From: a virus
DNA length: 64,000 bases
Reading direction: 5' to 3' (one strand)
Virus record (IMG/VR): IMGVR_UViG_3300004097_003605
Coordinates: 610 to 64,609 of that record
In this document: piece by piece, positions 43,255 to 62,621 of the stretch
How the letters are laid out: every line of letters begins with the position of its first letter
How positions within the stretch are numbered: position 1 is the stretch's first letter
Program-made: the position numbers and the translations under genes
The notes under the pieces: model-generated
Told to the model about the DNA's origin: nothing
The model's input: only the letters and a program-made list of their open reading frames with translations
The model's database searches: none

Positions 43255-46200
43255 TCATCGCCAAGCGTCCTCGAATTCATTCAAATCGATTTCGAACCAG
43301 ACTCCGTGCGATTGCTTTCGGCAATTGGACGTAAATCCATACAGGCCATGCCCAAGTAAAACCTTGTAATGCTGCTTAGTAGCACCGTCTATAGTTTCAA
43401 CATAGAGCGGCCGGTCATGCTCTTCGAAGAATGCATGCTCGAGCGCGATTTCAAGATTCAAGTGCTTCAAGTCACGTCTTAGCCGCGAAACTTCTGCTTG
43501 TTGTTCATCATCACTTCCGAAATTTCCTTTGCCAATTCGCTGCAGTCTTGCAGTTTGTATGTGCACATTAGAGTTGTCGCTCCCCCGTAGGGCCCGGAGA
43601 AACAGCTCGACTGCAAACACTTGGTGAGGCCCACTCATAATGTGTGGGTCGACAATCAATACTCGGCTTACACGATGCAATAGAATCTGTCCGAGGTAGT
43701 CGGTCGCCATCGGATTATGGCCTGTTCCTCCCTGAAGCGTGAATGCATGAAAATGACGTGATTCAGGTAGCGTCGCGACTGACCAACTGAGGTCAGACTT
43801 AACATCCGAATATGCATCCAATTCACGTCCAATTCGGCTGCACGAGGCTGATTGCAATCCGCTGCCGAGTTTCTCACTCGCGGGCCATTTCCAAACGACC
43901 AATGGCTGCTTGCCCTCGCCATCAATCACGATTGATGAGACATCAGGCTGTGCGTTGCCCGGCGATTCGACCGTTACGCCAAGTTCATTTAGCTCAGAGA
44001 GACGATTACGAGCGATATTGCGGTCCACTGCGTCAGCCCCCGCATCAACAGAACTAATTCTCAGAATGACGCCTGCTGGGCCAACGGGCGACATTGCCAC
44101 TTCCTTTATTACATCAAACCAGTCCTTGTGCAGTCCCGCAATTCGTCGTGGGACAAGTTCCGAAACAGTAAATACAACTCGCCCACGCGCCCCGCGTAGA
44201 GATGCAACAATCTCCCGCTCCGCCGATTTGCTTGGCGTTCGCCATGGAGATTCGCGCCCAGTGTCTGCAGCATCAATGAGACGATTCAGATATTGAAGAG
44301 GCTCACCTCGAGACAGCTGTTCGTGGCTAAATTGATTCTGGTAGTCGCAAAGACAGCCGTAACAACCGACGCTATCTGGATCGCATTCACAACTTGCAAG
44401 TAGATCACGAGCTGCTCGTAAGACAGCATCGAGATCCCTCAAAATTCGTTGGCAATGTCCAGCACCTCCCGGAACAGTATCGTACAAGACGATGACCTGT
44501 TTTCCGGTTGACGGATACGTCGTCGCTGCGAGATCGGAACGCTCGATTCCCAATGACTGACACGCGCCATTTGTCAAAGCATATGCGAGGCTGAGCCAGA
44601 AGCCAGTTTCTGACAAAGAGTGTTCAGAACCATGAAATTGAAGTGTCACGACGTCGGTTTCATACTCGTGGCCCAGCGCCACACCCTCACCTGTAGTCTC
44701 AGGACCAACGCCAATCGGTCCACAACAGGAAGTGCCGCGTGTGTGATACGGAGCGCGATGCTTATTTGGCCTGTTTCGGGCTTGGTCAAAATGCGAACGG
44801 CCACATGTGCTGCAGATCACAAACCCATTTCGAAATTGATTAGAGTCCGAAGCACGAACGAATGATCCGAGATTGAGCACCAACAGGCTGCGTCCGGTCA
44901 AGTACTCAGCATCAACGCGGACCGGATCATCTGCCGTCGGAATCGTGTTCATCTGATCCACTGTTTGCGTCGCATCTGTTCCAAGGTGTTGGAGAAAGAA
45001 CGATCGCGTCGCATGGCTTCTACGTGGCCGGCGACGACGTGGCTCTTTACCTTTCTCTGATGCGTCGGTTACGAATCCCCACTTGGGATCTATCCATTGC
45101 ATTGGTGCGCTACGCGAGGGATCAAACGGATTTCCGCAGACCTTACACTCTGGGTCAATTCCGTCAGGAGAGTGAGCGTCTCGCCATGTTTCGAGTGAAT
45201 TGCATTGGTTACACCAACGGAACCAGTTCGTTCCATCAAACTCAAGAGCCGGGAACTTTCGAAGACCGATTGATCTGTGAACCCGTTTGCCAGCAACAAT
45301 CTCCGCGCCGGGGGCATATTCGGCAAGCGCTATTTTTCCATCACGTTCCAGACGCAACGCTCCCCGTTCATTTGGCTTGGCGCTAAACTCCTGGTGCGTG
45401 AGGTGGAGCTTTACGACGTTAATCGGAAATGCGAAACTCGGGAGAACCCCGTGTCCCATTAGGTACGAGATCAGGAACTCTCCTCGAGTTTGTTTCAGCA
45501 ACTTCTCGAAGGACCGGACGATCGAACGCTCACGATCTGCATCCTTGTTCCGCTCACTTTCAATTTTGCGGTTACTATCGCGAGAAGTTCGGGCCTGACC
45601 TTCGAAGTTTTTGGCCTCTTCCCTGTGCCGATCAATTTCCAAACGGAAACTTCGCAGGAGGCTCGTCGTCGTCTGAGTTGCAATTGCCAGCGGATTTCCA
45701 CTTGCTGGATCAGAGTTGGCGAACAGACTCATGAAGTCTAATGCATCCACTCGAGTAATGTCGGGGAAGGACTCAATTATCCGTTTTAGGCAGATATCGG
45801 AATTATTTGCTTCATCCAACCAGTTACGTAGATTATCAACTGGGGACTGCCCGGTGCTGGCAATCTGACTGTCAAAGAAATGGCCGACGGTTCCAGCACG
45901 CTCAAACGCGTTCAACTCTCCATCAATTTTTTGGACGTTCAACCATTCCCAGTACTCGGATAGTACTTCAGCGAAGCAGTGACGCTGGAGAATTTTTCGA
46001 TTATTAAGATCGAGAACTGGTGGTGTTACTTCACCATTTATTATTCGAACCGGGTCATCGAAATGGACTCGATCGTGTGGACGCCGCTGGCAGAATGTCA
46101 GGACGAATGCAACGGAATCCGCTCGGCGCCCCGCTCGACCGGCTCGTTGCACATAGTTCACTGTGCTTGGGGGGACATTTCTTAGGACAACCGCCTGCAG

Positions 46201-49200
46201 GGCCCCAATGTCAATTCCCATTTCGAAAGTTGTCGAGCAGGAAAGTGCATTTACTTGTCCGCATTGGAACGCTTCTTGTGTTTCCTGACCGAATCCAGAC
46301 GACAACTGAGCCGTATGCTCTTCGCAACGAAGCTCTGTCGAAGCCATCCGTACAATTCGGCTGGTAAAAATATTTTCGCCAGGGGCGTCACTTGGAAGTT
46401 TATCAACACTTTTCAACTTGCCGTTGCATCTCGGAGTGCTGCATATGTGCTCGATATTAACTGACTCGAAGCGGCCGCATTTGTCACATTTCCAGATGAC
46501 GCGTGGTCTGGCTACCATCAGCGCGGAGTCTTGAATTACTAGAGCATTCTCACCTCCAATTTCCTCACGACGAAACAACGATTCGAGCGATTCGCCGGAC
46601 AAAAGATCGGTATATATTTGCCCAAGGAATTCTCGGACCGCGCTGTCTGGCAACGTATTCTGTGTACGTCTCAACCACCATCGTTTCACGAGTTCTTCAA
46701 ACAGGGTTTCATTTGCGCCCGAATTGCGCAGTCCATGCAGAACGGCATCACCCTTTCTCTGTCGTTCTATCACCAAATAATGTTGCTTGTCATGGAACCC
46801 TGGCTGTTCGATAGTGTCTGGCACACGAACTAAATGCCGTCGACGCATAAGGTTTATGATTCGTTCAACTAGATGTAGCAACTCATTCCAAGTCAATTTT
46901 CCCGGGAGGCCGCAGCTGTCAATTTGCTCATCACCTTGCGACAGAAATTGATCGCGAACCTCGTTTAGAATCGATACATGCATCAGGCCAAGGGACTCGA
47001 TTGAGAGCCGATCGGAGCCCATCACTTCAGACATTAGGTGATAGATCACTCTATTCTTGCGCTCATTTTTTCCAGTGAGGTACGAACCCTTGAAGGGGCC
47101 GTCGGGCATGTCCGCCAATTCGCGACTCTCAAGAAAGGGAACCTTTAGCCCTCGCTCTCGAATAACATCCAAACAACGCTCCGCCCATTCGGAAATATGA
47201 ATGGCCGAGTAGTCTTTCGGAAGAGCCTGGAAAGCCACTTCACGCATCATACTTTCGCTGATCTGGTCCTGAAAAAATGAGGCCATGAATGCGGCGTTCT
47301 GCCTGCTGTCACTGAAGACCAGCATTTTCCGTCCGCCGCCAACGAGTGGATCGTCACTAGCCGTTGTGCGGTGCGGAAACGATTTGCGAAGTTCCGATTG
47401 TTGCGTGGAAGAAAGGGCAGGAAGCTGAGTGTAGAGTGCCTGTGAGAGAATGCTTACAGGCACGTCTTGTCCCGTTTGAAGACGTTCGGCAATTCGTTGA
47501 TGCCTGCTAATTCCACAGTTCGGGCAGGATCGGACATCGGTTCGATCTTCATTCGTGGGGACTATATACATCGTTCTCCATATCGGAGTACGGTTGCTTG
47601 ACTGCCCCTCCAACGCACCAGTTACTAAATCAAATCGAACTGGCTCCAATGAGTCTCCTTCAAGGTTTGCATCCTCGAAAGCCAAAAAGTTGACCGGACG
47701 AGTCCACTCCGGAGGTTGATCCAGGCTTTCCCCTCTCTGCGACACATTGTTGCAGATAAATGGGAATTGACAGCTTCTGCACCTCGCAACTTCGAACGCT
47801 TCACGATCAACCGCCTTTTGACGACGAATGTCGATCGCAGTGATGCCGAGATCTGGAACACAGTCTTTGACAGACCTGCTTTCGATTTCTTCATCAGACG
47901 CGAGAACAACAAAAAGTCCTTCAAGAGCACCGGCGAACATATGATATCGGCACGGTAGAAGCGGCTGATCGCCGGGCGCGGGACGAGCGGAATTGCAAAG
48001 TGAAACAAGTCGTTCCAGATGGTTGGAATAATCGGTATCGGATGACTGGCCTTTGTTCCAGCGATCAGCCAGCTCCTGAAATGCCTTGGGCTCGTCCTTA
48101 ATTTGATTCCAGAGCCAGCGGAATCGTGGATGTCCCTTCATCAGGTGAAACAGAAATGCCCTTCGATCATTCCCCGCGGTCTTCTTTGCATTTATCCAGG
48201 TGTCTTTCGGCGCTAAATGCTTGAATGTGTCGACGAACTTTTCGTGATTACATCCATCTATGTCGACCAGCTGATCCGCCGGAATTTCCCCAAATGCATC
48301 ATCCGCGATACCCTGAAGCTTCGTCGACGCGAATTCCCAACCGAATGTAACGTCAGTTGGTGCAAGTCGTTTCGCAAGGATGACAGATGACTCGTCAAAT
48401 GGCAGCCCGAATAAATCGCCTGCAAAGGTAGACGTCGCGTTTCGCTTGTCCTTGTCAGACATTCTGGGGCCGGTAAGTGTTGCACTCGTCGCAATGCACA
48501 CAGGTTCGCGATACTCCGTACCGACGGCCTTTTTTCCACGGTGAATTGCAGCTCGGAGCCGCTGCATCAGACGTGCCAACTCGATCCCCTGAGCACCACG
48601 ATAGCTATGGGCTTCGTCGAGAATTAGAAATCGCCATGCCGCCTCATCCACAATCTCGAAAAACGGCGACTCGTATGGACGAAGAAGCGATTGCTCAAGC
48701 ATCGCAAAGTTCGTGATCAGAATGTCCGGCGGATCCTCAACGATTTCTTCTCGGCTTAGTAACTGGTTGTCAGGCGCATTCGGCTCCTTGCGAAGTCCCT
48801 TTTCGCGTCCACCTTTCACCGTCTCACTTGTGTATCGCGCGAATGTAATCGGGATTGCGTTTTCGCCGTTACTATCGTTGTATCCAATGAGCTGAACGAG
48901 TCGACGAATCTGGTCGTTTACCAATGCATTCATTGGATAGACAATCAGAGCCCGAATTCCCTTACCGCATTGGCTTCCGTCTGGAGAACGAGTCGGCCAC
49001 CTTAGAATCCAGTCGATGGCCGGTAACAGAAAGCATTCAGTTTTTCCGCTACCAGTTCCGCTTGCAACTACAGTATTCGCCCCACCATTTGTACAAAGTC
49101 TGGTGATCGCTGACTCCTGATGTTCGTACAGCTTCCGGCTTCCTGGAATCCTTTCGCGTGCAACAACAGCTTTCGCTGTTCGAGACTTCCGTCCGATTGA

Positions 49201-49500
49201 CAGACCTCTACTAGTTCCAGATTCCCTGGACGGTTCGGGCTGGTTCTCGCGAAATAGCTCGGAAAATCTTTCGTGAAGAGTTCCATCAGAAACAAGCGTG
49301 TCTAGTGTCGAATTTCCAAGCGTAAATGGGGCCGTCGCTTCGAGAAACGGGCCATTGATGAGCCGACCTGGTGATCTAAGAATTCGACGGAATTCATCAT
49401 TTAGCTCGCGAGTACCTGCATCACCACTCAGCCCGAACGATGTAGCAAGGTAGGCCAAGTATTCGTTGCGAAGATTGTTGGCCACGTCGATAGGGTTCAT
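43255..49500 (-). CDS. DruE-like SF2 helicase + DUF1998 + C-terminal MIT_C/PLD-like domain
   Basis: SGTGSGKT, LDEAH, ATSAT, STTFEMGIDIG, QRAGRAGRR; DUF1998 YDTVPGGAG..CEC..CYGC; C-terminal IVDPH..HQ..HDR..LGHGL; likely ATG at 49500. Confidence 0.85.
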   Translation of the reverse strand: MNPIDVANNLRNEYLAYLATSFGLSGDAGTRELNDEFRRILRSPGRLINGPFLEATAPFTLGNSTLDTLVSDGTLHERFSELFRENQPEPSRESGTSRGLSIGRKSRTAKAVVARERIPGSRKLYEHQESAITRLCTNGGANTVVASGTGSGKTECFLLPAIDWILRWPTRSPDGSQCGKGIRALIVYPMNALVNDQIRRLVQLIGYNDSNGENAIPITFARYTSETVKGGREKGLRKEPNAPDNQLLSREEIVEDPPDILITNFAMLEQSLLRPYESPFFEIVDEAAWRFLILDEAHSYRGAQGIELARLMQRLRAAIHRGKKAVGTEYREPVCIATSATLTGPRMSDKDKRNATSTFAGDLFGLPFDESSVILAKRLAPTDVTFGWEFASTKLQGIADDAFGEIPADQLVDIDGCNHEKFVDTFKHLAPKDTWINAKKTAGNDRRAFLFHLMKGHPRFRWLWNQIKDEPKAFQELADRWNKGQSSDTDYSNHLERLVSLCNSARPAPGDQPLLPCRYHMFAGALEGLFVVLASDEEIESRSVKDCVPDLGITAIDIRRQKAVDREAFEVARCRSCQFPFICNNVSQRGESLDQPPEWTRPVNFLAFEDANLEGDSLEPVRFDLVTGALEGQSSNRTPIWRTMYIVPTNEDRTDVRSCPNCGISRHQRIAERLQTGQDVPVSILSQALYTQLPALSSTQQSELRKSFPHRTTASDDPLVGGGRKMLVFSDSRQNAAFMASFFQDQISESMMREVAFQALPKDYSAIHISEWAERCLDVIRERGLKVPFLESRELADMPDGPFKGSYLTGKNERKNRVIYHLMSEVMGSDRLSIESLGLMHVSILNEVRDQFLSQGDEQIDSCGLPGKLTWNELLHLVERIINLMRRRHLVRVPDTIEQPGFHDKQHYLVIERQRKGDAVLHGLRNSGANETLFEELVKRWWLRRTQNTLPDSAVREFLGQIYTDLLSGESLESLFRREEIGGENALVIQDSALMVARPRVIWKCDKCGRFESVNIEHICSTPRCNGKLKSVDKLPSDAPGENIFTSRIVRMASTELRCEEHTAQLSSGFGQETQEAFQCGQVNALSCSTTFEMGIDIGALQAVVLRNVPPSTVNYVQRAGRAGRRADSVAFVLTFCQRRPHDRVHFDDPVRIINGEVTPPVLDLNNRKILQRHCFAEVLSEYWEWLNVQKIDGELNAFERAGTVGHFFDSQIASTGQSPVDNLRNWLDEANNSDICLKRIIESFPDITRVDALDFMSLFANSDPASGNPLAIATQTTTSLLRSFRLEIDRHREEAKNFEGQARTSRDSNRKIESERNKDADRERSIVRSFEKLLKQTRGEFLISYLMGHGVLPSFAFPINVVKLHLTHQEFSAKPNERGALRLERDGKIALAEYAPGAEIVAGKRVHRSIGLRKFPALEFDGTNWFRWCNQCNSLETWRDAHSPDGIDPECKVCGNPFDPSRSAPMQWIDPKWGFVTDASEKGKEPRRRRPRRSHATRSFFLQHLGTDATQTVDQMNTIPTADDPVRVDAEYLTGRSLLVLNLGSFVRASDSNQFRNGFVICSTCGRSHFDQARNRPNKHRAPYHTRGTSCCGPIGVGPETTGEGVALGHEYETDVVTLQFHGSEHSLSETGFWLSLAYALTNGACQSLGIERSDLAATTYPSTGKQVIVLYDTVPGGAGHCQRILRDLDAVLRAARDLLASCECDPDSVGCYGCLCDYQNQFSHEQLSRGEPLQYLNRLIDAADTGRESPWRTPSKSAEREIVASLRGARGRVVFTVSELVPRRIAGLHKDWFDVIKEVAMSPVGPAGVILRISSVDAGADAVDRNIARNRLSELNELGVTVESPGNAQPDVSSIVIDGEGKQPLVVWKWPASEKLGSGLQSASCSRIGRELDAYSDVKSDLSWSVATLPESRHFHAFTLQGGTGHNPMATDYLGQILLHRVSRVLIVDPHIMSGPHQVFAVELFLRALRGSDNSNVHIQTARLQRIGKGNFGSDDEQQAEVSRLRRDLKHLNLEIALEHAFFEEHDRPLYVETIDGATKQHYKVLLGHGLYGFTSNCRKQSHGVWFEIDLNEFEDAWR

Positions 49501-49510
49501 TGCGTTCTCG

Positions 49511-52500
49511 CTATTTATAGATGAATGACCCGTCTGGTAGGCCGGCTCCACCTCGGTAGAAGATTTGTACGAGAAGCTCGGCGAGAATTAGACACTTGCG
49601 AGCTTTCGTGGGGGCCTGCTCCATGACTTTGCCAAGCTGACGGTTTAGAATTTTGATGATTGGTGCGTCAAAGTCGTCGATCCCAAACACAGGCTCAGGA
49701 CCCTCTGATGCCACAATTCGGTCCATCCAGCTGATCAGCCAGATATCTCGAATTGACTCGGAAATTCGTAAAGATTCCTGTTTGATCGCAGATCCCCAAA
49801 GCATTTGAGTGCTTGCCCCAGCCGGACGACTTACCTCTTCGTACCACTCGCCCGCAATTGGTGACATAGTTTCGGCACTGCAGAAGCTGAGGTCGATATC
49901 AGCACCCGTAAGCGATTCTTGTGGACTGACTTCGTCCCACTCATTCAACGTCTTGCGAAGATCGATCAGTTCGCTGACGCTATCTGATGCCGGCGGACTG
50001 ATTCGCAACGCCCCGTCGAACCTGCATGTAGCCAGCCCGTTGATAAGATCTCTTTCGTCGAAAATTGTCCATACGTGATTCTTATCAGACCACCGTAACG
50101 AACAGGCCTGTTTGCGGCGGGAAGCGCTTCCGTAGCAGTTCGCATTAATGATCATGTCGCCGTTGGCGTTGCTATCATTGTCAATATTCAGGAGTTGAAG
50201 CTGATGTCGGTGGCGACCATTTCTACAGATGAACTCAGTGGTTGAACCGAGGTTGAGCGGATGCAACTGCTTAAGAGGCGGCAACCCCAAAGCGGCGTGA
50301 TGAGCTTCAATGCGGCTACTTGCTTCTCGTTTGTTGTAGTACTTGGCCTTTTCGCTGGATGCTCTACTGACAAGCCACAAATCCCGGATGTAGTCAATGG
50401 GGAATGTCAATTCTGGCGATGATGCCCCAATCGGAGGTATCCAATTGGCGACCGTTACATTGAAGTCCGCAAAATGCCGACCATCCATAAGCAATTCGAC
50501 ACATTCTGCATCGCATTCCTTCTTCGTCGCGAGTTTGTTGAAGAAGGAAAGCGGGTCGAGTAACTGATGACCGCGCCTTGCTGATTGCAGCCGATTAGCG
50601 AAATTGACAAGCTCCTCATCAGCATGTGATTGCTCGCCAATCCATGCCCTGATTCTCTGCTCAAATGCAATCAGGTCATCGCTTCCCACTGGCTCTGAAA
50701 AGTTGGGATTAAACTCCGACAAGTCGCGAGCCAGCTTCCTACGAAAATCGGGCAATCCATCGCTAAGTTGAGCCAGTAGATAGGCTGAATTTGCCGCCCC
50801 GATGAGCGAAGCGGAAGTGAATGAGGACTGCTCATTATGGAAACGCCAGCACGGTGTCCTCATGCTTTTGCTGTCGACGGCAATGCGCAGGGCGGGCTTC
50901 TTTAGCGACAACCCGCGAGGCGGCAGAGTGGTGACAGCGATGGCAGTCCGACTGCCTGCAGGTAGTTCATCCAGCGTCCCAATCCATGAGATGTTTCGGT
51001 TTGAATCATCACAGCTCGCCAAAACGGTCGGACGGCTGGCCGGGTCCAGAGGATCCCATGCAACAAGAGAACAATGTTCGTTTTCAAGCTCAAGCTCAGC
51101 CGTAATTTGAAACGTGTTGTGATCGGCTTCGACATCGAGATTGACGACAATTGGTCGATCAACCTTGATGAGGGCAACGAATTCCTTGCCACAACTTTCA
51201 AACCGGATCTCATTGACTGAGTCAAGTTTCCGTACAACGCGCAGACCGGACTCAGTCTTCTGTCCGTCAAAAGTAAGGTCTCGACCAAGAATACGAATGT
51301 CACTGTCGAACGGTACTTCGATTTCAAGTAATGCCCCTGCCGCATCCCGCTTGTCGATCAGGATTACCTCGTCTGTCCAGATCGCGTCAGAGTCCTTCGC
51401 GGAGACGACTCGCCAGCGAATGCCTTGTACGGGCCAGCTGAATGAGATGGCAGGCACCCTGTCATCATCCCATTTCCATAACGCAGACAAGGCGGGCTGG
51501 ACCGTTGAATCTTTGACGGCCCAAAGGCCGTCGATGTTGGAGACGTGTTGGCCTTCCAGGACTCCACCCTGTGGCGCGAGAACTTCAACGGCAGCACTCT
51601 TCCCGTTGTCGGTGTAATGTGGCCCATCGAAGCTAAAGCCTGGAATTACTGCAAGGCGGGATACCAAGCGGCCTATCCCTTTGGCATTTCGAAGTTGAAA
51701 CACCCCTGGGCCTTCGTTTGGATCAATCGGGAACAACAAACTCTGGCTTGAATCTATACGAATTCGTGAGGGATCGCCGAGCTCATAGGCGGAGTACTCG
51801 CGTGTCAGCAATAACGTGACCGGTTGTCGGCTGTCAGAGTTAACAAGCGGCGGCTCGTCATAGACGTCAACTAGTTGTCCATCTGACGTTTCTGCAGTAA
51901 CTACAGGCTTCGGCAGTTCAACATGCGCGCCAGGACGGTAAGCCAGCTCAATTGACTCCTCTTCACCGTCGATCATCCATTTAAGAGTAGACTCGCTATG
52001 TGACCTAACAGGTACTTGAACTTCCCAGGCCGTCCAGGTTTTGTGTTTTGAAAACCAACGCCATTTCGTTTGCAGCTGACGAATCAGACCGGGACAACAC
52101 TCAGTGTCGGGAGTGCCTTCAATCAGTACGTACCAACGACCGGCTCCAAGTCCGCGGGAGTCCAGAATCGCGGCATCCTCAAGATTTCCGTTGTGCCCGT
52201 GAAACCAGATCCAGTGAGAATCGTTGTGGCGAGCAAGAAAGGACCTGTTCAAATCCGGGTCGCGACGAGACACCACCGCAACGTCCTCTATGATTGGTCC
52301 CTGCACATACGCGGTCGATTCAGACTTGCCCTTGATCCAGAACGGTTTTTCGATTCCTGATAGGCGCCAGGCGGTTGTATCGGTTGACGGCACCGACAGT
52401 ACAACGTGACCGGTTTCCGGACGAAACTTGATTTCAGGAAAACTGCGATGACGAGATCGAGAACGCAGCCCGACCGAAAGGTCGGCCAGTGCAGATCGAA

Positions 52501-53239
52501 CAAGGGACAAGTCGATACTCGGTGGAAGCAGTTCCAGCTCTAGATCTGCGTTTCCCCGTTGAACCCAGCCAACAACAACTCGACTGAAGCACGCCCATAG
52601 TTCAGCTGCTCCCAGCGATTCGCCCTCTAGGAACCTGCGGGTCTTGGCCGGGATGCCGCGAAATCCTGTCACATGGCGTTCGATGAGTTGACGCCGCATG
52701 TCCACTGGAAGGTTTGGCAATGAATGGCCATGAACGTCAAAACCTTTCGCAAGTACTCCAATGAGAGGATTAATTGCGACGTTTGGGAGACCGCAGTGGT
52801 AGACGATTGGGCCAATGTTGCTCTGACGAGTCCGTGGTATTGTGTAGTCGAATGCATCAAGAGCATGTCGCGCCCAAGACCCGAGCAAGCGTTGCTTCTG
52901 CGGGCCGCCTGGCACGCTCTTGGGGCACCGGCTGTTTGGCGCGTAGCGGGCCGTTCGAATGTGCTCAAAAAGGAATGGCCAGAATTCGCTCCACCCGTCT
53001 GTCGCATAGTCCTTTTGCGCAACGCTCAAAAACGCGTGCAGCGCTTTAGCTAAATCAAGATCTGTTGCCTTTGACTCATCCTTATCACGGTTGACAACTT
53101 CGAAAAGCAGTCGGAGACAATCATCAAGGATGAGAGGGTCATCTGGCAGGCCGGCAAGCCCAGCGATGTCAAATTCATTCTCACGAAAAGCCTGTGCAAG
53201 TTTCTCGGTGATCTTTGAGTGATTCGAAGTCACAGACAT
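49511..53239 (-). CDS. Large hypothetical protein, DruH-like partner of the helicase
   Basis: ~1240 aa, GGAGG RBS before ATG 53239, ends 10 nt before the helicase; N-terminal WSEFWPFL..IVYHCGLP. The DruH call is mainly from context. Confidence 0.6.
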   Translation of the reverse strand: MSVTSNHSKITEKLAQAFRENEFDIAGLAGLPDDPLILDDCLRLLFEVVNRDKDESKATDLDLAKALHAFLSVAQKDYATDGWSEFWPFLFEHIRTARYAPNSRCPKSVPGGPQKQRLLGSWARHALDAFDYTIPRTRQSNIGPIVYHCGLPNVAINPLIGVLAKGFDVHGHSLPNLPVDMRRQLIERHVTGFRGIPAKTRRFLEGESLGAAELWACFSRVVVGWVQRGNADLELELLPPSIDLSLVRSALADLSVGLRSRSRHRSFPEIKFRPETGHVVLSVPSTDTTAWRLSGIEKPFWIKGKSESTAYVQGPIIEDVAVVSRRDPDLNRSFLARHNDSHWIWFHGHNGNLEDAAILDSRGLGAGRWYVLIEGTPDTECCPGLIRQLQTKWRWFSKHKTWTAWEVQVPVRSHSESTLKWMIDGEEESIELAYRPGAHVELPKPVVTAETSDGQLVDVYDEPPLVNSDSRQPVTLLLTREYSAYELGDPSRIRIDSSQSLLFPIDPNEGPGVFQLRNAKGIGRLVSRLAVIPGFSFDGPHYTDNGKSAAVEVLAPQGGVLEGQHVSNIDGLWAVKDSTVQPALSALWKWDDDRVPAISFSWPVQGIRWRVVSAKDSDAIWTDEVILIDKRDAAGALLEIEVPFDSDIRILGRDLTFDGQKTESGLRVVRKLDSVNEIRFESCGKEFVALIKVDRPIVVNLDVEADHNTFQITAELELENEHCSLVAWDPLDPASRPTVLASCDDSNRNISWIGTLDELPAGSRTAIAVTTLPPRGLSLKKPALRIAVDSKSMRTPCWRFHNEQSSFTSASLIGAANSAYLLAQLSDGLPDFRRKLARDLSEFNPNFSEPVGSDDLIAFEQRIRAWIGEQSHADEELVNFANRLQSARRGHQLLDPLSFFNKLATKKECDAECVELLMDGRHFADFNVTVANWIPPIGASSPELTFPIDYIRDLWLVSRASSEKAKYYNKREASSRIEAHHAALGLPPLKQLHPLNLGSTTEFICRNGRHRHQLQLLNIDNDSNANGDMIINANCYGSASRRKQACSLRWSDKNHVWTIFDERDLINGLATCRFDGALRISPPASDSVSELIDLRKTLNEWDEVSPQESLTGADIDLSFCSAETMSPIAGEWYEEVSRPAGASTQMLWGSAIKQESLRISESIRDIWLISWMDRIVASEGPEPVFGIDDFDAPIIKILNRQLGKVMEQAPTKARKCLILAELLVQIFYRGGAGLPDGSFIYK

Positions 53240-53550
53240 CTCTCGTGCCTCCTGCCGATAGGTATTCCTCAGACGAAACAAACACGGTGTCTGTTTACGT
53301 CATGCCCCAGCCATATTGCATCAAAGATGTTCGATGCCAAGATATACACTTCGGATCAGTTTTGCTATGAAGCTGACAGATAAGGAAGAGATCAACTGTA
53401 TGCAAAACCTGCCTGCGTAAGCCGCGGAAAGACTGCCGCCAAAACCGGATTAGACTTAGCCTGCCAACCACCTGTGCTCGGTACAGCAATGCCCGATGGG
53501 CAAGGTGAGACTGAGTTGCTTGGCGCCCCGCAATCGGGGCTGGCGTAGAT

Positions 53551-53910
53551 TCATGTTGATTCCCTGAGCGGGAATTGGATTCCGTGGATTACGGTCGTGC
53601 TGACGGGGCCACATGCAAAACCATGCTCAGTGAAGGCAAACAGCACGGCGTTTTCCGGCATCGCGTTTAGGAATTCGTCTTCGCATGGCGAAGGTTCGTA
53701 CCCGTCTTCGTCCGACAGTAGCTTCAGGGTTTTCTTTGTCTCGATGCTGCTGTTTTCGTACTCGCCAACCACGTCAATCCAAGAGAACAGTAAGTGATCG
53801 CAAGGCTTGGACGTGCCCTCGCCGTTTACGCTGTAGACTTCCTTTCCGCAGACTGGGCAGCAGAACTGCGGTCCCGACCAGATGTTCTCGATTTCGATGA
53901 GCTGAGCCAT
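53551..53910 (-). CDS. Small acidic protein with Zn-binding motif
   Basis: AAGGAG RBS; CCPVCG..PCDH. Confidence 0.7.
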   Translation of the reverse strand: MAQLIEIENIWSGPQFCCPVCGKEVYSVNGEGTSKPCDHLLFSWIDVVGEYENSSIETKKTLKLLSDEDGYEPSPCEDEFLNAMPENAVLFAFTEHGFACGPVSTTVIHGIQFPLREST

Positions 53911-53966: not shown

Positions 53967-55604
53967 TCATTCAGAGGCTGACGCGTTTGCCAGGTGCTGC
54001 TGCAATCGCTCGATCTGAGTATCTAGTCCGGATTTCAGTCGCTCGGCTTTCTTCACGATCTTCTCGCTGCTGCTTCTGACCGTCGTAGCAAATTTAATGA
54101 TGTCTCCCAGCGATTCAGCGTCTCGCAGGATGGTATTCACTGCCTGGTCCATCTCCGCAAAGTCGGCGGCAGAGCTGTCTTTCGCACGGCGGTCTGCGAC
54201 GACCATGGCGCGAGCGAGTGAGATCGCAGCCTTGAGAAATACGTCATGCTCTGGACTCTCTGCGTCCCAGACGACGATGATGTCATCTCCCCATCGATTG
54301 ATGACCTCAAGCCCCTCTGGAGCAGCATCCGGCGTGAAAACCATGACGCCTACTGTGGCTTCCCGGTTTTCTCTTGCTGTTTGAAGCTCCTTCAGCGCCT
54401 TGGAAACTCCGTAGCTCTTGTTGCCCTTTGCTTCGAAGACAATACGTCCGCCCGGAGCCGCTGACTCCGGCCCCAGCTCCTGGACATGGTCTCCCACTTT
54501 GCAGCGGGAGATCGTTCCGGCGGAGTCTGTGGTATCGACAAAGATGTCGTTCAGCCGACGGGATTCGATTTGCAGAAATTCGCCCAGCGAATCCTCGAAC
54601 TCGAGCCCATGGCGTGTGGACCGTCCTGCTTCTTCCCGCTTTGCATTGAGTGCCTCAAGTGAGGCACGCACATCCGACTGAAAATTCGTATTCGACTCAG
54701 CCATCGCGTCGATGGTTTTTCGCAGCTCATTTCTCAGTCGCGACAGGGGTGAGTCCTCACGGTCGAGACTGAGACTGTCACGAATTGATGAATGCATTTG
54801 CTCCAGCAGATTCGACATCCGGTTGATTGCTGAGTTCTCGTTGTCGCGTGAGAACTCTTTCATGATGGTGTCGTTTGCCGCTTCGACGCGTGTAACAAGT
54901 CGCGAGAGAGCGCCGTCTTCGTTGTCGAGCGAGAACTCTTGCCGAACGGCATCGACGTCTTCAGCAAGTTCCTTGCGAAGCCGTCCGTTCTCGCCAGTCA
55001 GTTCTTCAACGAGCCGCGAAAGCGCCGACTCTTTGTCGTCCAGTGAGAACTGACCTAGGATCACCTTTCGGTGTCCCTTCAGCGAGGTCTCGACTGTCTC
55101 TCCAAGCAGAGCAAGGACACCATTGCTCTGCTCCGGAGACAGCATCTTCAAGAGGGGACTGTCTGAGCCGATGTGCTGTTTCAATGTTCCAGCAAGTGTT
55201 GAACCGTCATCACCGACGTGTCGAGCCAGCAATTGTTCCAGTTCGCCGTCACGAGAAACGAGCCGGTTGATACGCTGCGGCAGCTCGCCGTCAGTGGCGT
55301 CGAAGTACTTCTGGAGTGAGTTCGACACGCCGCGAAGTGTCGTGTCCGCGTGCTCGGTCAGAGCAGACTTGACCGAGTTCATCAGCCGCTCGCCTTCGAG
55401 ACGTACAGAGTCAGCGTCAACCGTGCCAGTCGCCTGTCGCAGGGCGAGAACTCCAAGCCGGAGCGACGACAGTGCAAACAGGTCACGGGCCTCACCCTCG
55501 GGGTGCTTCATCAACTCGCAAATAATGTCAGGGTCGGCCACCGTCAGGTGCAGCTGAATCGTTCGGGCGGATTGACCATTGAGGGGGTTCTGCGTGTCGA
55601 TCAT
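53967..55604 (-). CDS. Long coiled-coil protein with C-terminal PD-(D/E)xK-like domain
   Basis: ATG 55604 with GGAG RBS; heptad-rich body; GLEFE..GDHV..IVFEAK. Confidence 0.75.
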   Translation of the reverse strand: MIDTQNPLNGQSARTIQLHLTVADPDIICELMKHPEGEARDLFALSSLRLGVLALRQATGTVDADSVRLEGERLMNSVKSALTEHADTTLRGVSNSLQKYFDATDGELPQRINRLVSRDGELEQLLARHVGDDGSTLAGTLKQHIGSDSPLLKMLSPEQSNGVLALLGETVETSLKGHRKVILGQFSLDDKESALSRLVEELTGENGRLRKELAEDVDAVRQEFSLDNEDGALSRLVTRVEAANDTIMKEFSRDNENSAINRMSNLLEQMHSSIRDSLSLDREDSPLSRLRNELRKTIDAMAESNTNFQSDVRASLEALNAKREEAGRSTRHGLEFEDSLGEFLQIESRRLNDIFVDTTDSAGTISRCKVGDHVQELGPESAAPGGRIVFEAKGNKSYGVSKALKELQTARENREATVGVMVFTPDAAPEGLEVINRWGDDIIVVWDAESPEHDVFLKAAISLARAMVVADRRAKDSSAADFAEMDQAVNTILRDAESLGDIIKFATTVRSSSEKIVKKAERLKSGLDTQIERLQQHLANASASE

Positions 55605-55654
55605 CTGAGTGCTCCAGCTGAAATGGGGTGTTAAGGGCGACGAAACCTCTCTAA

Positions 55655-55671
55655 AGCAGACGATGTGCCAA
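55655..55671 (-). promoter_or_regulatory. Sigma54 (-24/-12) promoter
   Basis: TTGGCAC-ATCGT-CTGCT on the minus strand; GG and GC are exactly 10 nt apart; 51 nt before ATG 55604; divergent from a sigma54 activator. Confidence 0.78.
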
Positions 55672-55819
55672 TGCGGAATCTTCGATGTACGGTTGAGTTG
55701 CAATTGCTGTCTGTAATTGGAGTTGTACTCTTTTTAAAAGGATTCTTTCCTGGTCAGTACTCACTCTTCTCTGTCTGGGGTACAGTTAGGTTTGTGATTT
55801 GAACAAATGGAGATATGCA

Positions 55820-57418
55820 ATGAAAAGCAAGCGAATTCTGGTCGCATGGATCGGGCACAATGACTTGCTCGGCCTTGCTGCCGACTTGCCGGCAGGGCAG
55901 CAGGCTGCCCTGCTGAAGCGGATCAGTCGCTCTCTTCCTGCCGGGAAACAGAACGGCCCCATTCGGACGCTGGTGCAACAAGAGCTTTTTGACGAAGTAC
56001 ACCTACTGAGCAACGGCCATCCTGCAGCCACGACGAAGGCATTCGTCAAATGGCTGGGAGTGGAGGCGGCTGTCCACGAAGTCACCGTTGAAAATCCGAC
56101 GGACTATTCAGCGATCTTTGCTGCGGCGGAGACGACGCTGGCTGAGATCACCCGCGGCAAAGGATCGAAAGAACTCTGCATCCACCTCAGCCCTGGCACG
56201 CCGGCCATGACGGCGATCTGGGTGCTGCTCGGCAAGAGTCGCTACCCGGCGACATTTTATCAGTCGTACGACGGCCGTGCTTGGGAGACGACGATCCCCT
56301 TCGATCTTGTCGTTGATTTCGTGCCGGAACTTCTGATGCGACCGGACCAGAGTCTCCAGCACCTTGCCGCGCAGAGCCCTCAAGAAGTTGAAGGATTTGA
56401 GTCCATCGTTGGAGGGAGCCAGGCCATCCGTCTTGCAGTTGGAAGGGCTCAAAAGGCTGCAATTCGTGACGTCCCTGTCTTGATTCTTGGAGAGACGGGT
56501 ACCGGCAAGGAGATGTTTGCGCGGGCGATTCATGCAGCGAGCCACCGTAATGATGGTCCATTCATCGCAATTAATTGCGCTGCGATGCCGAAAGACCTGC
56601 TGGAGTCGGAATTGTTCGGCCACGCCAAGGGAGCATTCACTGGTGCCGATAAGCCCAGGGCTGGTGCATTCGAAACGGCTGACGGCGGGACACTGTTTCT
56701 GGATGAGCTTGGTGAGTGCGGGCCAGAGATGCAGGCAAAACTGTTACGTGCGCTCCAGCCGCCGCCCGGCAAAGGGCCATGTCACCGCGTGTTTCAGCGG
56801 CTCGGGGAAACGCGTGAAAGAACGAGCAATGTGCGAGTCGTTGCTGCAACGAACCGCGACCTGCTGGCTGACATTCGCGCCAACCGGTTTCGTGAGGATC
56901 TTTACTACCGTCTCGCTGTGATTTCGCTGCGGCTGCCACCTCTTCGTGAGCGTCGATCCGACGTCCCCCTTTTGACGCAGAGTCTTCTCGATCAGATCAA
57001 TCGCGAGTTTGCGGAAACCGAACCGGGCTATCAGCCACGACAACTCTCAAAAACCGCGCTGTCCTACGTGAAGCGACACCCGTGGAACGGCAATGTCCGG
57101 CAATTGCACAGTGTCCTGGTCCAGGCTGCCGTGATGTGCGACGGCACTGAAATCAAACCACGCGACCTGGCCGCATCAGCATCCGAACAGGAAAGTTCGG
57201 AATTCTCGCAGCTGTTGAATGTCTCGCTTGGCGGAGACTTTTCGAGTGAGAAATACCTTGAGAACATCCAGCGCCAGTTGCTGATCCGGGCAATGGATGA
57301 CGCAGACGGAGTGCTGGTAAAAGCCGCTGCTCTGCTTGGGATCACAAACTATCAGACGCTCGACGCACAACTGACGCGACTGGGAATAGACAAGTCACAA
57401 TGGAAACAGCGTCGCTGA
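55820..57418 (+). CDS. Sigma54-dependent activator (bEBP) with N-terminal RtcR-like CARF domain and C-terminal HTH
   Basis: ILVAWIGHNDL..IHLSPGTPAM (CARF-like); GETGTGKE; ESELFGHAKGAFTGA; FLDELGE; FREDLYYRL; WNGNVRQL. Confidence 0.88.
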   Translation: MKSKRILVAWIGHNDLLGLAADLPAGQQAALLKRISRSLPAGKQNGPIRTLVQQELFDEVHLLSNGHPAATTKAFVKWLGVEAAVHEVTVENPTDYSAIFAAAETTLAEITRGKGSKELCIHLSPGTPAMTAIWVLLGKSRYPATFYQSYDGRAWETTIPFDLVVDFVPELLMRPDQSLQHLAAQSPQEVEGFESIVGGSQAIRLAVGRAQKAAIRDVPVLILGETGTGKEMFARAIHAASHRNDGPFIAINCAAMPKDLLESELFGHAKGAFTGADKPRAGAFETADGGTLFLDELGECGPEMQAKLLRALQPPPGKGPCHRVFQRLGETRERTSNVRVVAATNRDLLADIRANRFREDLYYRLAVISLRLPPLRERRSDVPLLTQSLLDQINREFAETEPGYQPRQLSKTALSYVKRHPWNGNVRQLHSVLVQAAVMCDGTEIKPRDLAASASEQESSEFSQLLNVSLGGDFSSEKYLENIQRQLLIRAMDDADGVLVKAAALLGITNYQTLDAQLTRLGIDKSQWKQRR

Positions 57419-57555: not shown

Positions 57556-59289
57556 GTGGCATCGATTGGTGACAGGCTTGATGGCAAATATTTGGTAACA
57601 AAGCGGCTTGGCGCCGGTGGGTTTGGAGAAGTCTTTCTTGCAGATGACGCGGCCATTCCTGGGCGGCATGTCGCCATTAAGGTGCTTCACCGCGCGGACG
57701 ACGAAGATGACCAGAGCGATCTGGTCTGGGAGATGCAGCAACTCGCAAAGGTCAGCCATCCTCACGTCGTGAGCTTTCACCATCATTTTTTTGAGGATGG
57801 CCACCTTCACCTTGTGATGGAGTATTGCTCGAAAGGCAGTCTTGACGAGCATCTGGCAAAAGCAGGGTCGTTCCCGGAGCGGCAAGTCTTCGAGTGGGCG
57901 TTACAGCTGTGCGGTGCACTTTCCCATGTTCATGGCAGAGGAATCGTGCACCACGACATCAAGCCGCAGAACGTTCTGTTTGCGGCTGATGGAACCATCA
58001 AGCTTAGCGATTTCGGCGTGGCGAATACGCACGCGGGAACGTTGGCATTTCTACCACCGGAAGCCTTCCTTCACGAGCCGGTTTCTCAAATGGATCCGCG
58101 CATCGACGTCTACGCATTTGGCCTCACGCTGATCCAGATGCTTACCGGCGAGCACCCGTTCTTTGGAGTTTCGAGAGAAGACGCGGTCGAGGCTCGAATC
58201 AGACACGACTTCGTTCCCGCCAGTCTTTCTCAGTGGACGCAGGATGTTCTGCTCAAGGCAACGCACCCCACTCCCGAATTGCGATTTCAGTCGATCGCAG
58301 ATCTTGCGCAGGCCATTCGCGCACAGCACGTCCCGTTCATCATCGATTTGAAGCGGATCCAGGCAGATAAACTTGCAGGCAAGGCCGAAGCTCAAATGCG
58401 CAGAGGTCGCTGGCGAAAGGCGGAGGAGCATATCAGATACGCTCTCGACTATAGCCCAGACTGTGTCTCTGCCTTGATGGCCGCGGGACGCTGCAAGCTA
58501 CTGGTACGCCAGACTGACAGTGCTTTCGAATACTTCCGCAAGGCGATGCGAGTCAGTCCTCGCACGCCTGTGCAGAAAGAACTCGCTGAAATCAGCCTGC
58601 AGCGAGGCAGGATTCCCAGAGCCATCTCGCTGTTGACGGATCATCTCCAGCGAAACGCGTCAGACTTTGAAGCATACAACCTGTTGCTGAAGTGCTACTA
58701 CCTGACTGATCGGCTTGAGGCGGGCATCGAACTGGCCGAGTCGCTTAAGGATGAATCGCCCAGCGTCTGCTTATCAAACAACCTGTTTGTACTGCGTATT
58801 CTGGATGGTGCAGTGACCAGCGACGAACTGGATGAACTTGAACGGGCTGACCGCAGTAATCCGTTCTTCGCTTACAACCTGGAAGTGTTCTGCGGAGCAC
58901 TCCGGCTCAGCGATCAGTCGCAGCCGCCACTGAAGTCCAAGTTGCTCTTTCAGGAATACCGGTTCGGGCTCGATGAGCCGAGAGGCAAATCGAATATTGT
59001 GTCCGTCTATCTGCCAGACGGACACCGAGAAGATTTCTCTCAACCCATTATTACCATCGGCTGGCTGGATTCGAATGACGTGACACTCGATTCCAGGGGA
59101 GTCAGTCGCCGTCACTGCGTCGTCGTCAACCGCTCGGATGATGTCTGGCTCTATGACCTCGAAAGTACGGTCGGCACTCTCGTCGATGGAGAGCAAATCT
59201 CAGGAAGCCAGCATCTTCCGGGTGTGCATAACATCGAGCTGGGGGAAGTCAGCCTCCGCATCGCGGCAAGCCATGATCTGCTTGTCTAA
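57556..59289 (+). CDS. Hanks-type Ser/Thr kinase + TPR repeats + FHA-like domain
   Basis: GAGGFGEV, VAIK, HHDIKPQN, DFG, PPE; TPR-like middle; C-terminal VSRRHC..DLESTVGT. Confidence 0.88.
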   Translation: MASIGDRLDGKYLVTKRLGAGGFGEVFLADDAAIPGRHVAIKVLHRADDEDDQSDLVWEMQQLAKVSHPHVVSFHHHFFEDGHLHLVMEYCSKGSLDEHLAKAGSFPERQVFEWALQLCGALSHVHGRGIVHHDIKPQNVLFAADGTIKLSDFGVANTHAGTLAFLPPEAFLHEPVSQMDPRIDVYAFGLTLIQMLTGEHPFFGVSREDAVEARIRHDFVPASLSQWTQDVLLKATHPTPELRFQSIADLAQAIRAQHVPFIIDLKRIQADKLAGKAEAQMRRGRWRKAEEHIRYALDYSPDCVSALMAAGRCKLLVRQTDSAFEYFRKAMRVSPRTPVQKELAEISLQRGRIPRAISLLTDHLQRNASDFEAYNLLLKCYYLTDRLEAGIELAESLKDESPSVCLSNNLFVLRILDGAVTSDELDELERADRSNPFFAYNLEVFCGALRLSDQSQPPLKSKLLFQEYRFGLDEPRGKSNIVSVYLPDGHREDFSQPIITIGWLDSNDVTLDSRGVSRRHCVVVNRSDDVWLYDLESTVGTLVDGEQISGSQHLPGVHNIELGEVSLRIAASHDLLV

Positions 59290-62300: not shown

Positions 62301-62621
62301 GCTGAAGGCTTCCTGGTGAGCCCATCGGTTTCGGATTTCGGACAGCTCGTGCAGCATGCCGCGTTCGGCTTTGCCCAGCTTGTTGCGGAACAGGTACTGC
62401 CATTCGCTGTTGATGACGTTGACGATCAGCGGTGCGTCCCAGGGGATCTGAGCCCGACTGGCCTTCTCGGCAGTGGATTTGTTGCTCCGCAGGACCTCGC
62501 GGATCTTCTCCTGCCACTCATCTTTGTGACGGGCTTTCATTTCCCGTTCGACGAAGGGCTGCATGCCTTCGACGAACAGGTCCAGCGCGGTGCCTACGCG
62601 GTCTTTGTTGCTCTTTGCCAT
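59307..62621 (-). CDS. Swt1-like HEPN + DUF499 AAA+ ATPase (restriction-like defence system)
   Basis: N-terminal RNRWAH (R-X4-H); QTNFGGGKTHS; LILIDEW; FQRTRGVLRL. Confidence 0.88.
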   Translation of the reverse strand: MAKSNKDRVGTALDLFVEGMQPFVEREMKARHKDEWQEKIREVLRSNKSTAEKASRAQIPWDAPLIVNVINSEWQYLFRNKLGKAERGMLHELSEIRNRWAHQEAFSTDDTWRALDTIHRLLSSISAGDEAAQVDRLKADTQHTRSRELARQETRRAQKEALAGTPTGGLRPWRDVVTPHPDVASGRFAQAEFAADLAQVIRGDATDEYGNPKEFFRRTFITDGLRGLLLGAINRLTGNGSDPVIELQTNFGGGKTHSMLALYHLVSGTSAADLPGIDVLLSETEATELPKAKRAVLVGTALSAGQAHKKPDGTVVHTLWGEMAWQLLGKKGYAIVADSDKNGTSPGSDILSELFAKAGPTLILIDEWVAYIRQTYETPDLPGGSFDSNLTFAQSLTEAAKSPNVLVVASLPQSRIEVGGEGGQKALDILENTFTRVKSSWRPASQEESYEIVRRRLFESIEPDNLASRDAVIDAYMQLYKKQEAEFPSGCRDGDYRRKVELAYPVHPELFERLYTDWASLEEFQRTRGVLRLMATVIYSLWEGDDKSLMIMPAMIPMDDSAILSEITTKSGLSPAWTTVIETDVDGNDSLSRRIDRDNPNLGRLSACRRVARTIYVGSAPIADTARKGVDDRRIKLGCVQPGEGVAVFGDALRRLTDQATHLYVDGSRYWYSTQPSVTRVAQDRAAEQTDDDVLEEIRNRLAAEQKHAGDFERVHACPDSGADVPDETEGRLVILKPESPHVNKNEDSLALQAAQAILEQRGSSPRINRNTLVFAAADRTRLTDLEDAVRKYLAWKSIYNDRTSLNLDPFQTNQAKTKFEESDGTVQARIPETYQWLLVPTQPEPTQPVQWQTFKATGADRLPVRASKKLVSEELFVTEYAGVRLRMDLDRVPLWRGNHVGVKQLCEDMAQYLYLPRFKNQRAIIQSMIDGVSSLTWSEDTFAVADAFDPDRNRYRGLRYSTNANIIADGSTVLVKPDIASAQIGTDETAPWPGGGSGKPSGGTTPGGSEPTEDGESQDAEEVDTKPRRFFGAIPLDASRLGRDAGRVAEEVLSHLTGLPGASANVTMEIQIEIPEGVPDNVVRTVMENCRTLKFSTQDFESD

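Follow-up and report, generated by a model that had tools for sequence, protein, structure and literature searches.

The stretch of DNA considered here, referred to as the window, comprises 64,000 nt (positions 610 to 64,609) of the IMG/VR record IMGVR_UViG_3300004097_003605, a 71.6-kb record in which a prophage is followed by a defence island. The island harbours a gene for a sigma-54 activator, or bacterial enhancer-binding protein (bEBP), with a CARF sensor domain at its N-terminus and, divergent from it, a sigma-54 promoter box behind which lie, on the opposite strand, the genes for a nuclease-like protein (gene A), a small zinc protein (gene B), a large and rare protein (gene C) and a DruE-like helicase. 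The relatives of the activator protein come nearly all from Planctomycetota, and the host is evidently a marine planctomycete; the best matches to the DNA come from marine metagenomes, and a search of sequencing runs gave no RNA run containing it. The features at the locus are as follows, with the evidence in brackets.

43255..49551, minus strand: DruE-like helicase, 2098 amino acids (aa) (PADLOC DruE1, 1.7e-185; DruE3, 1.4e-167)
49511..53239, minus strand: gene C, 1242 aa, rare, in the position of DruH (5 homologues, DruE-like gene next)
53240..53550, minus strand: gap of 310 nt between genes B and C (a GC hairpin, lacking a U-tract, directly follows the stop of gene B; no sigma-54 box)
53551..53910, minus strand: gene B, 119 aa, small CxxC...CxH protein, the small Zn protein (homologue in locus L090)
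53967..55604, minus strand: gene A, 545 aa, coiled coil plus PD-(D/E)xK nuclease-like domain, first gene behind the box (fold, invariant residues)
55655..55670, minus strand (read 55670-55655): sigma-54 -24/-12 promoter box TGGCAC-ATCGT-CTGCT (consensus match and conservation)
55721..55742, no strand: GAGT-N3-ACTC dyad and AT-rich tract TCTTTTTAAAAGGA (present; not conserved in locus L081)
55781..55786, plus strand: TACAGT, putative -10-like hexamer of a sigma-70-type promoter of the activator gene (upstream sequences of 79 loci)
55791..55807, no strand: inverted repeat TTTGTG-N5-ACAAA, candidate activator binding site, i.e. upstream activating sequence and auto-operator (conservation)
55820..57418, plus strand: sigma-54 activator, CARF-AAA+-HTH (HTH, helix-turn-helix), family RtcR_PspF2, 532 aa (Pfam, PADLOC, NCBIfam, motifs, CARF fold)
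55820-56389, plus strand: predicted CARF domain of the activator, residues ~1-190 (fold model, motifs)

The open reading frame of the activator extends from 55799 to 57418 on the plus strand, the likely start being the ATG at 55820, and contains the Pfam domains Sigma54_activat (PF00158, 5e-64), AAA_lid_14 and HTH_8, the last of these a C-terminal Fis-type HTH at residues 480-509 (PF02954, 23.4 bits against a cut-off of 22). The GAFTGA motif (residue 271) is intact, as the initial annotation had noted for the bEBP, and so are Walker A (GETGTGKE, 224), Walker B (LFLDE, 292) and the R-finger (DLYYRL, 360). Over residues 4-523 the protein matches positions 1-480 of 481 of the PADLOC model RtcR_PspF2--CARF_AAA_HTH (PDLC01995; 535 bits, 5.1e-161).

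For the N-terminal 190 residues there is no Pfam family above threshold, and a CARF profile sequence search against the PDB gave no match; the identity of this domain came via a fold search. With the AlphaFold (AF2) model of residues 1-190 (predicted local distance difference test, pLDDT, 84.8) as query, the 50 best Foldseek matches from the PDB all belong to CARF proteins (Csm6, Cam1, Can2, Card1 and ring nucleases), with probabilities of 0.99-1.0. Both stretches lining the CARF pocket are conserved in 25 homologues: W10, G12 and D15 after strand 1 (WIGHxD) are invariant, and so is H122-L-S-P-G-x-P-x-M130 after strand 4 (HLSPGTPAM), where T127 is nearly invariant and position 129 is A or T. 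Judged by fold model and family profile, the N-terminal domain is a true, RtcR-like CARF domain, as had been proposed from the sequence of the window.

The activator is not RtcR proper, since it scores 322.9 bits against the 650-bit cut-off of the NCBIfam RtcR equivalog NF038308, which it matches at residues 81-514 only, and since the record contains neither rtcA nor rtcB; likewise, no Pfam RtcR-family match is listed at E values up to 0.01. The absence of an rtcAB RNA-repair operon, noted previously for the window, extends to the whole 71.6-kb record. RtcR of E. coli and Salmonella (rtcBA and rsr-yrlBA-rtcBA) resembles the window protein in its CARF-AAA+-HTH architecture, its sigma-54 dependence and its divergent genes, and a sister clade of the family drives Ro60/Rsr (see below); it differs in score (323 versus 650 bits), in its link to rtcA and rtcB and in that the cargo in the window consists of nuclease and defence genes.

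In the divergent box the GG lies at 55669-55668 and the GC at 55657-55656, with exact consensus spacing, and the sequence TGGCACATCGTCTGCT agrees with 9 of the 10 positions of the consensus TGGCAC-N5-TTGC, having CTGC instead of TTGC. Nowhere else in the 64 kb is there an exact match to TGGCAC-N5-YTGCW, of which 0.15 would be expected. The box is directed towards gene A, about 40 nt ahead of the gene A ATG, with genes B, C and DruE continuing on the same strand, and transcription would start near 55644.

Gene A starts at ATG 55604 with a GGAG 7 nt upstream and has no match in Pfam, PADLOC or NCBIfam, including the RmuC, DUF2130 and ShdA models; its homologues, at least 543 in number, are all annotated as 'hypothetical'. 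Its AF2 model consists of helices at residues 25-330, a coiled coil making up the N-terminal two thirds, and a confident alpha/beta core at 333-450, in which D372, E391 and K393 are invariant and form the D...ExK pattern of a PD-(D/E)xK core. In a Foldseek search the MG148 family came first, followed by the PD-(D/E)xK nucleases McrC, Hjc, NucS, Bax1 and RmuC, and weak Mrr_cat hits occur in 12 of 26 family members (DUF2130 in one of the 26, 1e-4). Gene A belongs to a large, unnamed family of coiled-coil, PD-(D/E)xK nuclease-like proteins. Membership in DUF2130 is not claimed, as hhalign against the DUF2130 cluster gave a probability of 5%, though the ExK strand was aligned.

The gene B homologue in locus L090 is 52% identical and lies directly behind a sigma-54 box, ahead of a gene C-DruE pair; genes of 119 and 121 aa at matching positions in the P0010 and P0247 contexts resemble gene B by size and position only. 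Gene C matches no model in PADLOC, Pfam or NCBIfam at E values up to 0.01, those for DruH included, and only five homologues were found; a DruE-like gene comes next in every one whose contig reaches far enough. The pair resembles Druantia type III (DruH plus DruE) in that a large protein is encoded ahead of a very large DruE helicase, but it differs in the lack of a match to DruH, in the rarity of gene C and in the recurrence of the small zinc protein gene upstream. A second sequence similar to TGGCAC-N5-xTGC occurs about 950 nt into the DruE frame in the window (48578, minus strand) and in two related loci (L090:14271 and L091:14274); it was not retained as a promoter candidate and probably reflects a coding constraint or conserved peptide motif.

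Conservation of the box and of the intergenic region

For comparison, 80 genome loci encoding the same CARF domain were fetched and scanned for boxes matching at least 9 of the 10 consensus positions, and boxes were tallied in 250-nt bins over 81 planctomycete loci. They concentrate at two sites alone, with 0-1 per bin elsewhere. The first is the divergent site, with 32 minus-strand boxes 0-750 nt upstream of the activator, 20 of these within 250 nt, as compared to a single box on the plus strand. The second lies 15-50 nt after the stop codon of the activator, where 49 of 72 loci have a plus-strand box, mostly before type I restriction genes; these boxes (L001-L080) are near-consensus, e.g. 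at about 11605 in L016 and 11602 in L011, and hsdR is usually the first gene behind them. The window and its closest relative, L081, have the divergent box only. When the window is aligned with L081, L011, L016 and L053, the GG and GC blocks are kept and the spacer differs, and the box is missing at free-standing gene A homologues that have no activator next to them (L082, L083). The box divergent from the bEBP, predicted from its exact spacing, is therefore kept in relatives, and its position, strand and spacing are conserved across the family. It is from this conservation of position and strand that the case for the box derives its strength, and the comparative evidence is to be considered decisive.

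As to the genes behind the divergent box, a gene A homologue is the partner in L081, in the P0005, P0010 and P0223 contexts and in L011, L016, L053 and L084, while the slot is taken by DUF2130 in L020, L038 and L051, by RmuC in L010 and by DUF3892 plus gene A in L011 and L016. The commonest divergent partner is accordingly a coiled-coil PD-(D/E)xK protein, spread over the activator tree. Often a small DUF3892 protein, absent from the window, is encoded between the divergent box and gene A, as the first gene (L011, L016, L022, L024 and L031; e.g. L016:9470-9757).

A further conserved element is the inverted repeat TTTGTG-N5-ACAAA, which in the window lies 13-29 nt before the activator ATG and about 130 bp upstream of the -24 element, a usual distance for an enhancer. 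Over about 79 loci, the pattern TTGT-N5-8-ACAA occurs 35 times in the bin from -100 to 0 compared to about once per bin elsewhere, and the family pattern consists of a TACAAT-like hexamer with TTTGTG-N5-7-ACAAA behind it, 20-30 nt ahead of the activator start. Because the half-sites are conserved in sequence, the repeat is more plausibly a protein site than an RNA hairpin, and it is our candidate for the binding site of the activator itself. The hexamer, TACAGT in the window, is TACAAT in most relatives, often with a TTGCNN 16-17 nt upstream, and might be the -10 element of the activator's own promoter. By analogy only, this layout recalls PspF/pspA, where the sigma-54 activator occupies sites between the two divergent genes and also regulates its own expression: here, too, the genes are divergent, and the candidate site overlaps the promoter region of the regulator gene. 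Unlike the window activator with its fused CARF domain, PspF lacks a sensor domain and is under the control of PspA.

Between activator and box the initial annotation had noted a GAGT-N3-ACTC dyad, which lies at 55721-55731, and an AT-rich tract at 55729-55742. Both are present, but neither is conserved in the closest relative L081, and the dyad was for this reason rejected as the best candidate for the binding site, the conserved inverted repeat being a different one; a DNA-bending role for dyad and tract is possible. A scan of 43-64 kb with Rfam matched no family, and hence neither a Y-RNA-like nor any other known RNA beside the regulator.

Cargo of the island and of related loci

Besides DruE, the defence genes in the window comprise HmaB/HmaC-like genes, and two further genes of interest lie downstream of the activator.

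57556..59289, plus strand: Ser/Thr kinase-TPR-FHA gene (Pfam; no sigma-54 box before it)
59307-62621: DUF499 ATPase with a Swt1-type HEPN domain (Pfam)

Kinase-TPR-FHA and HEPN-DUF499 genes are also found beside an 81%-identical relative (P0005 context), and the kinase-TPR-FHA gene may modulate the switch proposed below. Between 43255 and 64000 the GC content forms a mosaic, with 50-53% in gene C and DruE, 55-58% in gene A, the activator and the kinase gene, and 60-63% in the DUF499/DUF1156 system; the island was assembled from separately acquired modules.

In about 40 of the 80 loci the activator is followed by the type I restriction genes for HsdR, HsdM and HsdS. HsdR of these relatives carries an N-terminal DUF4145 domain, with the R-x2-GN-x3-H signature intact in all 12 printed sequences (e.g. 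L064:11721-15116 and L016:11697-15092), and DUF4145 is a family of HEPN RNases (PMC3710099). With DUF4145 on the relatives' HsdR and Swt1-HEPN on the DUF499 ATPase of the window, a HEPN RNase is a regular neighbour of the CARF regulator and is a possible source of its signal. With HsdR as the first gene behind the post-stop box, the restriction subunit would be gated most directly, which raises the question how host methylation is maintained.

Other cargo in relatives includes BREX, SIR2-HerA, ZorA-like and MrfA/DruE-like helicase genes. Defence systems follow gene A or DUF2130 in the same direction in four loci, namely BREX in L020 and L068, SIR2-HerA in L016 and PLD plus SNF2 in L084. The DUF2130-BrxA-BrxB-BrxC cassette (L020:3539-9775 and L068:9856-15927) lies divergent to the activator in one of these loci and runs in its direction in the other, with a sigma-54 box in front both times.

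A putative ligand-gated switch and its alternatives

Given the identity of the activator's domains, the box, and the conservation and linkage of both, the best explanation of the whole, to which we assign a probability of roughly 60%, is a ligand-gated transcription switch in a defence island next to a prophage. The CARF domain would keep the AAA+ domain of the activator off until a nucleotide-type signal binds; the activated protein would then assemble on the conserved repeat that lies immediately ahead of its own gene, loop to the sigma-54 holoenzyme waiting at the -24/-12 box and open the promoter. Leftward transcription would yield gene A and gene B first and, by read-through, probably also the Druantia III-like pair of gene C and DruE. 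As a sigma-54 promoter stays silent unless its activator acts, the unit would be off until a signal arises during infection or nucleic-acid damage. The ligand might be RNA ends with a 2',3'-cyclic phosphate, as for RtcR, a tentative best guess.

Comparative data are consistent with rpoN-dependent activation of the box by this protein, the sigma-54 gene rpoN having been found in five of five relatives' genomes tested. Of the silent defence operon initially proposed, the sensor domain, the conserved box and the defence-type cargo hold up; the Druantia-like reach does not follow directly. The same applies to the promoter pointing into both nuclease-like and Druantia-like genes: gene A is the first gene behind the box, but reaching the pair requires read-through across a gap that has no box. 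The label 'second-line' immunity does not suit the family: most relatives have even their type I restriction operon behind a sigma-54 promoter.

Several observations weigh against such a switch, in whole or in part. The rpoN gene does not lie within the 71.6-kb record, which is only part of the host DNA; the other points bear on one or another of the following alternatives.

The one that survives best, possible if rather doubtful, has the switch governing gene A alone or together with gene B, while the Druantia-like pair, acquired separately, would be a neighbour that has a promoter of its own and owes its co-orientation to island packing. It would account for the 310-nt gap without a box, for the GC hairpin right after gene B and for the fall in GC content from about 55-57% up to gene B to about 50-53% at gene C and DruE. 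The closest relatives of the activator were examined in five contexts; each has gene A as the partner (in one case only as a likely contig-end fragment) and none shows the Druantia-like pair, but two of the five are short contigs whose cargo side runs out within about 500 nt of the activator. Mobile-element or housekeeping genes come after gene A in L081 and in the P0005 and P0010 contexts. That the pair can have a promoter of its own is shown by L091 and L092, where an identical box, TGGCAC-AGCAA-GTGCT (TGGCACAGCAAGTGCT; L091:8928, L092:8927), lies 73 nt before gene C amid diverged flanks. There, gene C and the DruE-like gene end a train of restriction-modification, HEPN, CBASS and ATPase genes, the L092 contig stopping after the first 27 DruE codons.

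On the other hand, the gap in the window has no recognisable promoter, and a terminator and sigma-70 scan of 53-58 kb gave no intrinsic terminator between genes B and C. The fold of the gap RNA is no better than that of shuffled sequences (z = 0.06), and an alignment with L090 and L091 yielded no conserved element shared with the gap of the window. In L090 an activator of the same family, recognised by the signature motifs in its translation, has a box 15 nt beyond its stop codon, behind which come the gene B homologue, a comparable gap of 360 nt, gene C and DruE; the sigma-54 box is the only promoter signal found. Among the gene C relatives with readable DNA (L090, L091 and L092), the pair thus sits behind a sigma-54 box, beside the same regulator family, in three of three, which weakens the view of a regulator with gene A only and an unrelated Druantia system, and the defence systems trailing gene A or DUF2130 elsewhere point in the same direction. 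For read-through from the box into gene C and DruE the odds appear to be about even. In L090, type III CRISPR genes (Cas6, Cas10; L090:19779-22314) directly follow the DruE-like gene, a possible source of cyclic oligoadenylate beside a CARF sensor.

A second alternative retains the wiring and exchanges the signal, the CARF domain reading a cyclic oligonucleotide from a neighbouring cyclase of CBASS or type III CRISPR rather than RNA ends. The closest structural matches are all CARF domains that bind cyclic oligoadenylate, CBASS cyclase and patatin genes occur in the same arrays in L008, L037, L048 and L092, and a type III CRISPR Cas10 gene follows DruE in L090. However, the window and most loci have no cyclase, HEPN RNase domains are the more regular neighbours, and the motif after strand 4 has no basic residue, as in RtcR, a lack taken to mean a different ligand class in the relevant passage of Makarova et al. 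2014 (PMC4012209). On balance, a cyclic oligonucleotide seems rather unlikely.

Less likely still is a response to RNA or DNA damage in the manner of Rtc, in which damaged RNA is sensed and nucleic-acid processing or repair is switched on, with a location in defence islands because defence RNases cause the damage. That the regulon may be a damage response rather than immunity is suggested by a monophyletic Gemmataceae clade of the activator family which has Ro60/Rsr (TROVE plus vWA) behind the divergent box (L004, L005, L017, L026, L028 and L029; e.g. L005:733-2475), and in Salmonella Rsr is known to be part of the RNA-repair operon that RtcR controls (in line with PMC7790460). Genes for RmuC and DUF2130 are found on many chromosomes, and some gene A homologues are likewise found among housekeeping genes. 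Yet in most relatives the regulator fronts type I restriction genes via a sigma-54 box, the cargo extends to BREX, SIR2-HerA, ZorA-like and MrfA/DruE-like helicase genes, and rtcB lies elsewhere, with no box within about 1.5 kb of the rtcB loci in five relatives, of which L004 is the one Gemmataceae-clade genome checked.

Taken singly, the window box is only modestly significant, because the window has eight hits at 9 of 10 consensus positions, mostly intragenic, the chance rate of such matches being about one per 16 kb of single strand. That it is a chance match and the activator acts on a distant target is nevertheless hardly credible, since position, strand and spacing are kept in dozens of loci and the box is missing where the activator is missing.

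Relation to known systems and implications

The regulatory logic, which the initial annotation did not know to have been shown, has already been proposed in print, though as a prediction and not as a demonstration (PMC4012209, PMC11090510), and a literature search found no experimental test of it. Makarova et al. 2014 described RtcR-like NtrC-AAA-HTH proteins as 'often associated with restriction-modification systems' and predicted their regulation by sigma-54 (PMC4012209). The protein family (RtcR_PspF2), the architecture, the lack of a link to rtcBA and the restriction or defence setting are the same here; in contrast, the passages dealing with these regulators give no promoters or binding sites, while a conserved -24/-12 box is mapped here (PMC4012209). 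In addition, and unlike in that description as far as its passages go, the window has the divergent box only, with no restriction-modification operon behind the regulator, and its cargo is an unnamed nuclease-like family and a Druantia-like pair.

More recently, Bell et al. 2024 (eLife) reported defence superoperons headed by RtcR, with CoCoNuTs, type I restriction-modification, Druantia type III, Ser/Thr kinases and the coiled-coil RmuC-like nuclease ShdA, and proposed RNA fragments with cyclic-phosphate ends as the signal for RtcR homologues, with HEPN RNases in a feedback loop (PMC11090510). Common to both cases are overlapping gene classes and an RtcR homologue proposed to switch on defence genes (PMC11090510). 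Differences are that no CoCoNuT (McrBC-like) genes were seen in the window, that its cargo is divergent and not co-directional, that the phylum is Planctomycetota, and that gene A, compared with ShdA and RmuC, has no transmembrane helix and matches neither model. The principle having been predicted in 2014 and 2024, the layout itself is real and widely recurrent; what sets the window apart is that its layout is divergent only, that the nuclease-like partner is unnamed, that there is a candidate binding site and that the locus is linked to a rare Druantia-like variant with a small zinc protein.

The prevailing view of most known anti-phage systems is that they are produced constitutively, with activation taking place on the protein itself. 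If true, a strictly activator-dependent sigma-54 gate read by a CARF domain would be a transcriptional immune alarm that keeps toxic nucleases fully off and could couple several systems to one signal. For Planctomycetota it is possible, if rather doubtful, that a whole layer of immunity is silent and released by CARF-sigma-54 hubs reading the RNA-cleavage products of neighbouring HEPN RNases, the layer comprising coiled-coil nucleases, type I restriction systems whose HsdR is HEPN-tagged, and a Druantia III-like system that consists of a small zinc protein, a rare protein of 1,200-1,400 aa and DruE. In such a hub, one infection signal would switch on several unrelated defence systems via boxes spread along the island, and examples would be the box before gene A in the window, the post-stop box that 49 of 72 relatives have and the one that precedes gene C by 73 nt in L091 and L092. 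The locus gives a first functional handle on the rare Druantia-like variant, and the regulator-gene A pair likewise on an unnamed family of at least 543 coiled-coil nuclease-like proteins. With its conserved boxes, candidate site and compact regulator-gene A pair, it offers a compact and well-defined cassette on which an idea some ten years old could be put to the test.

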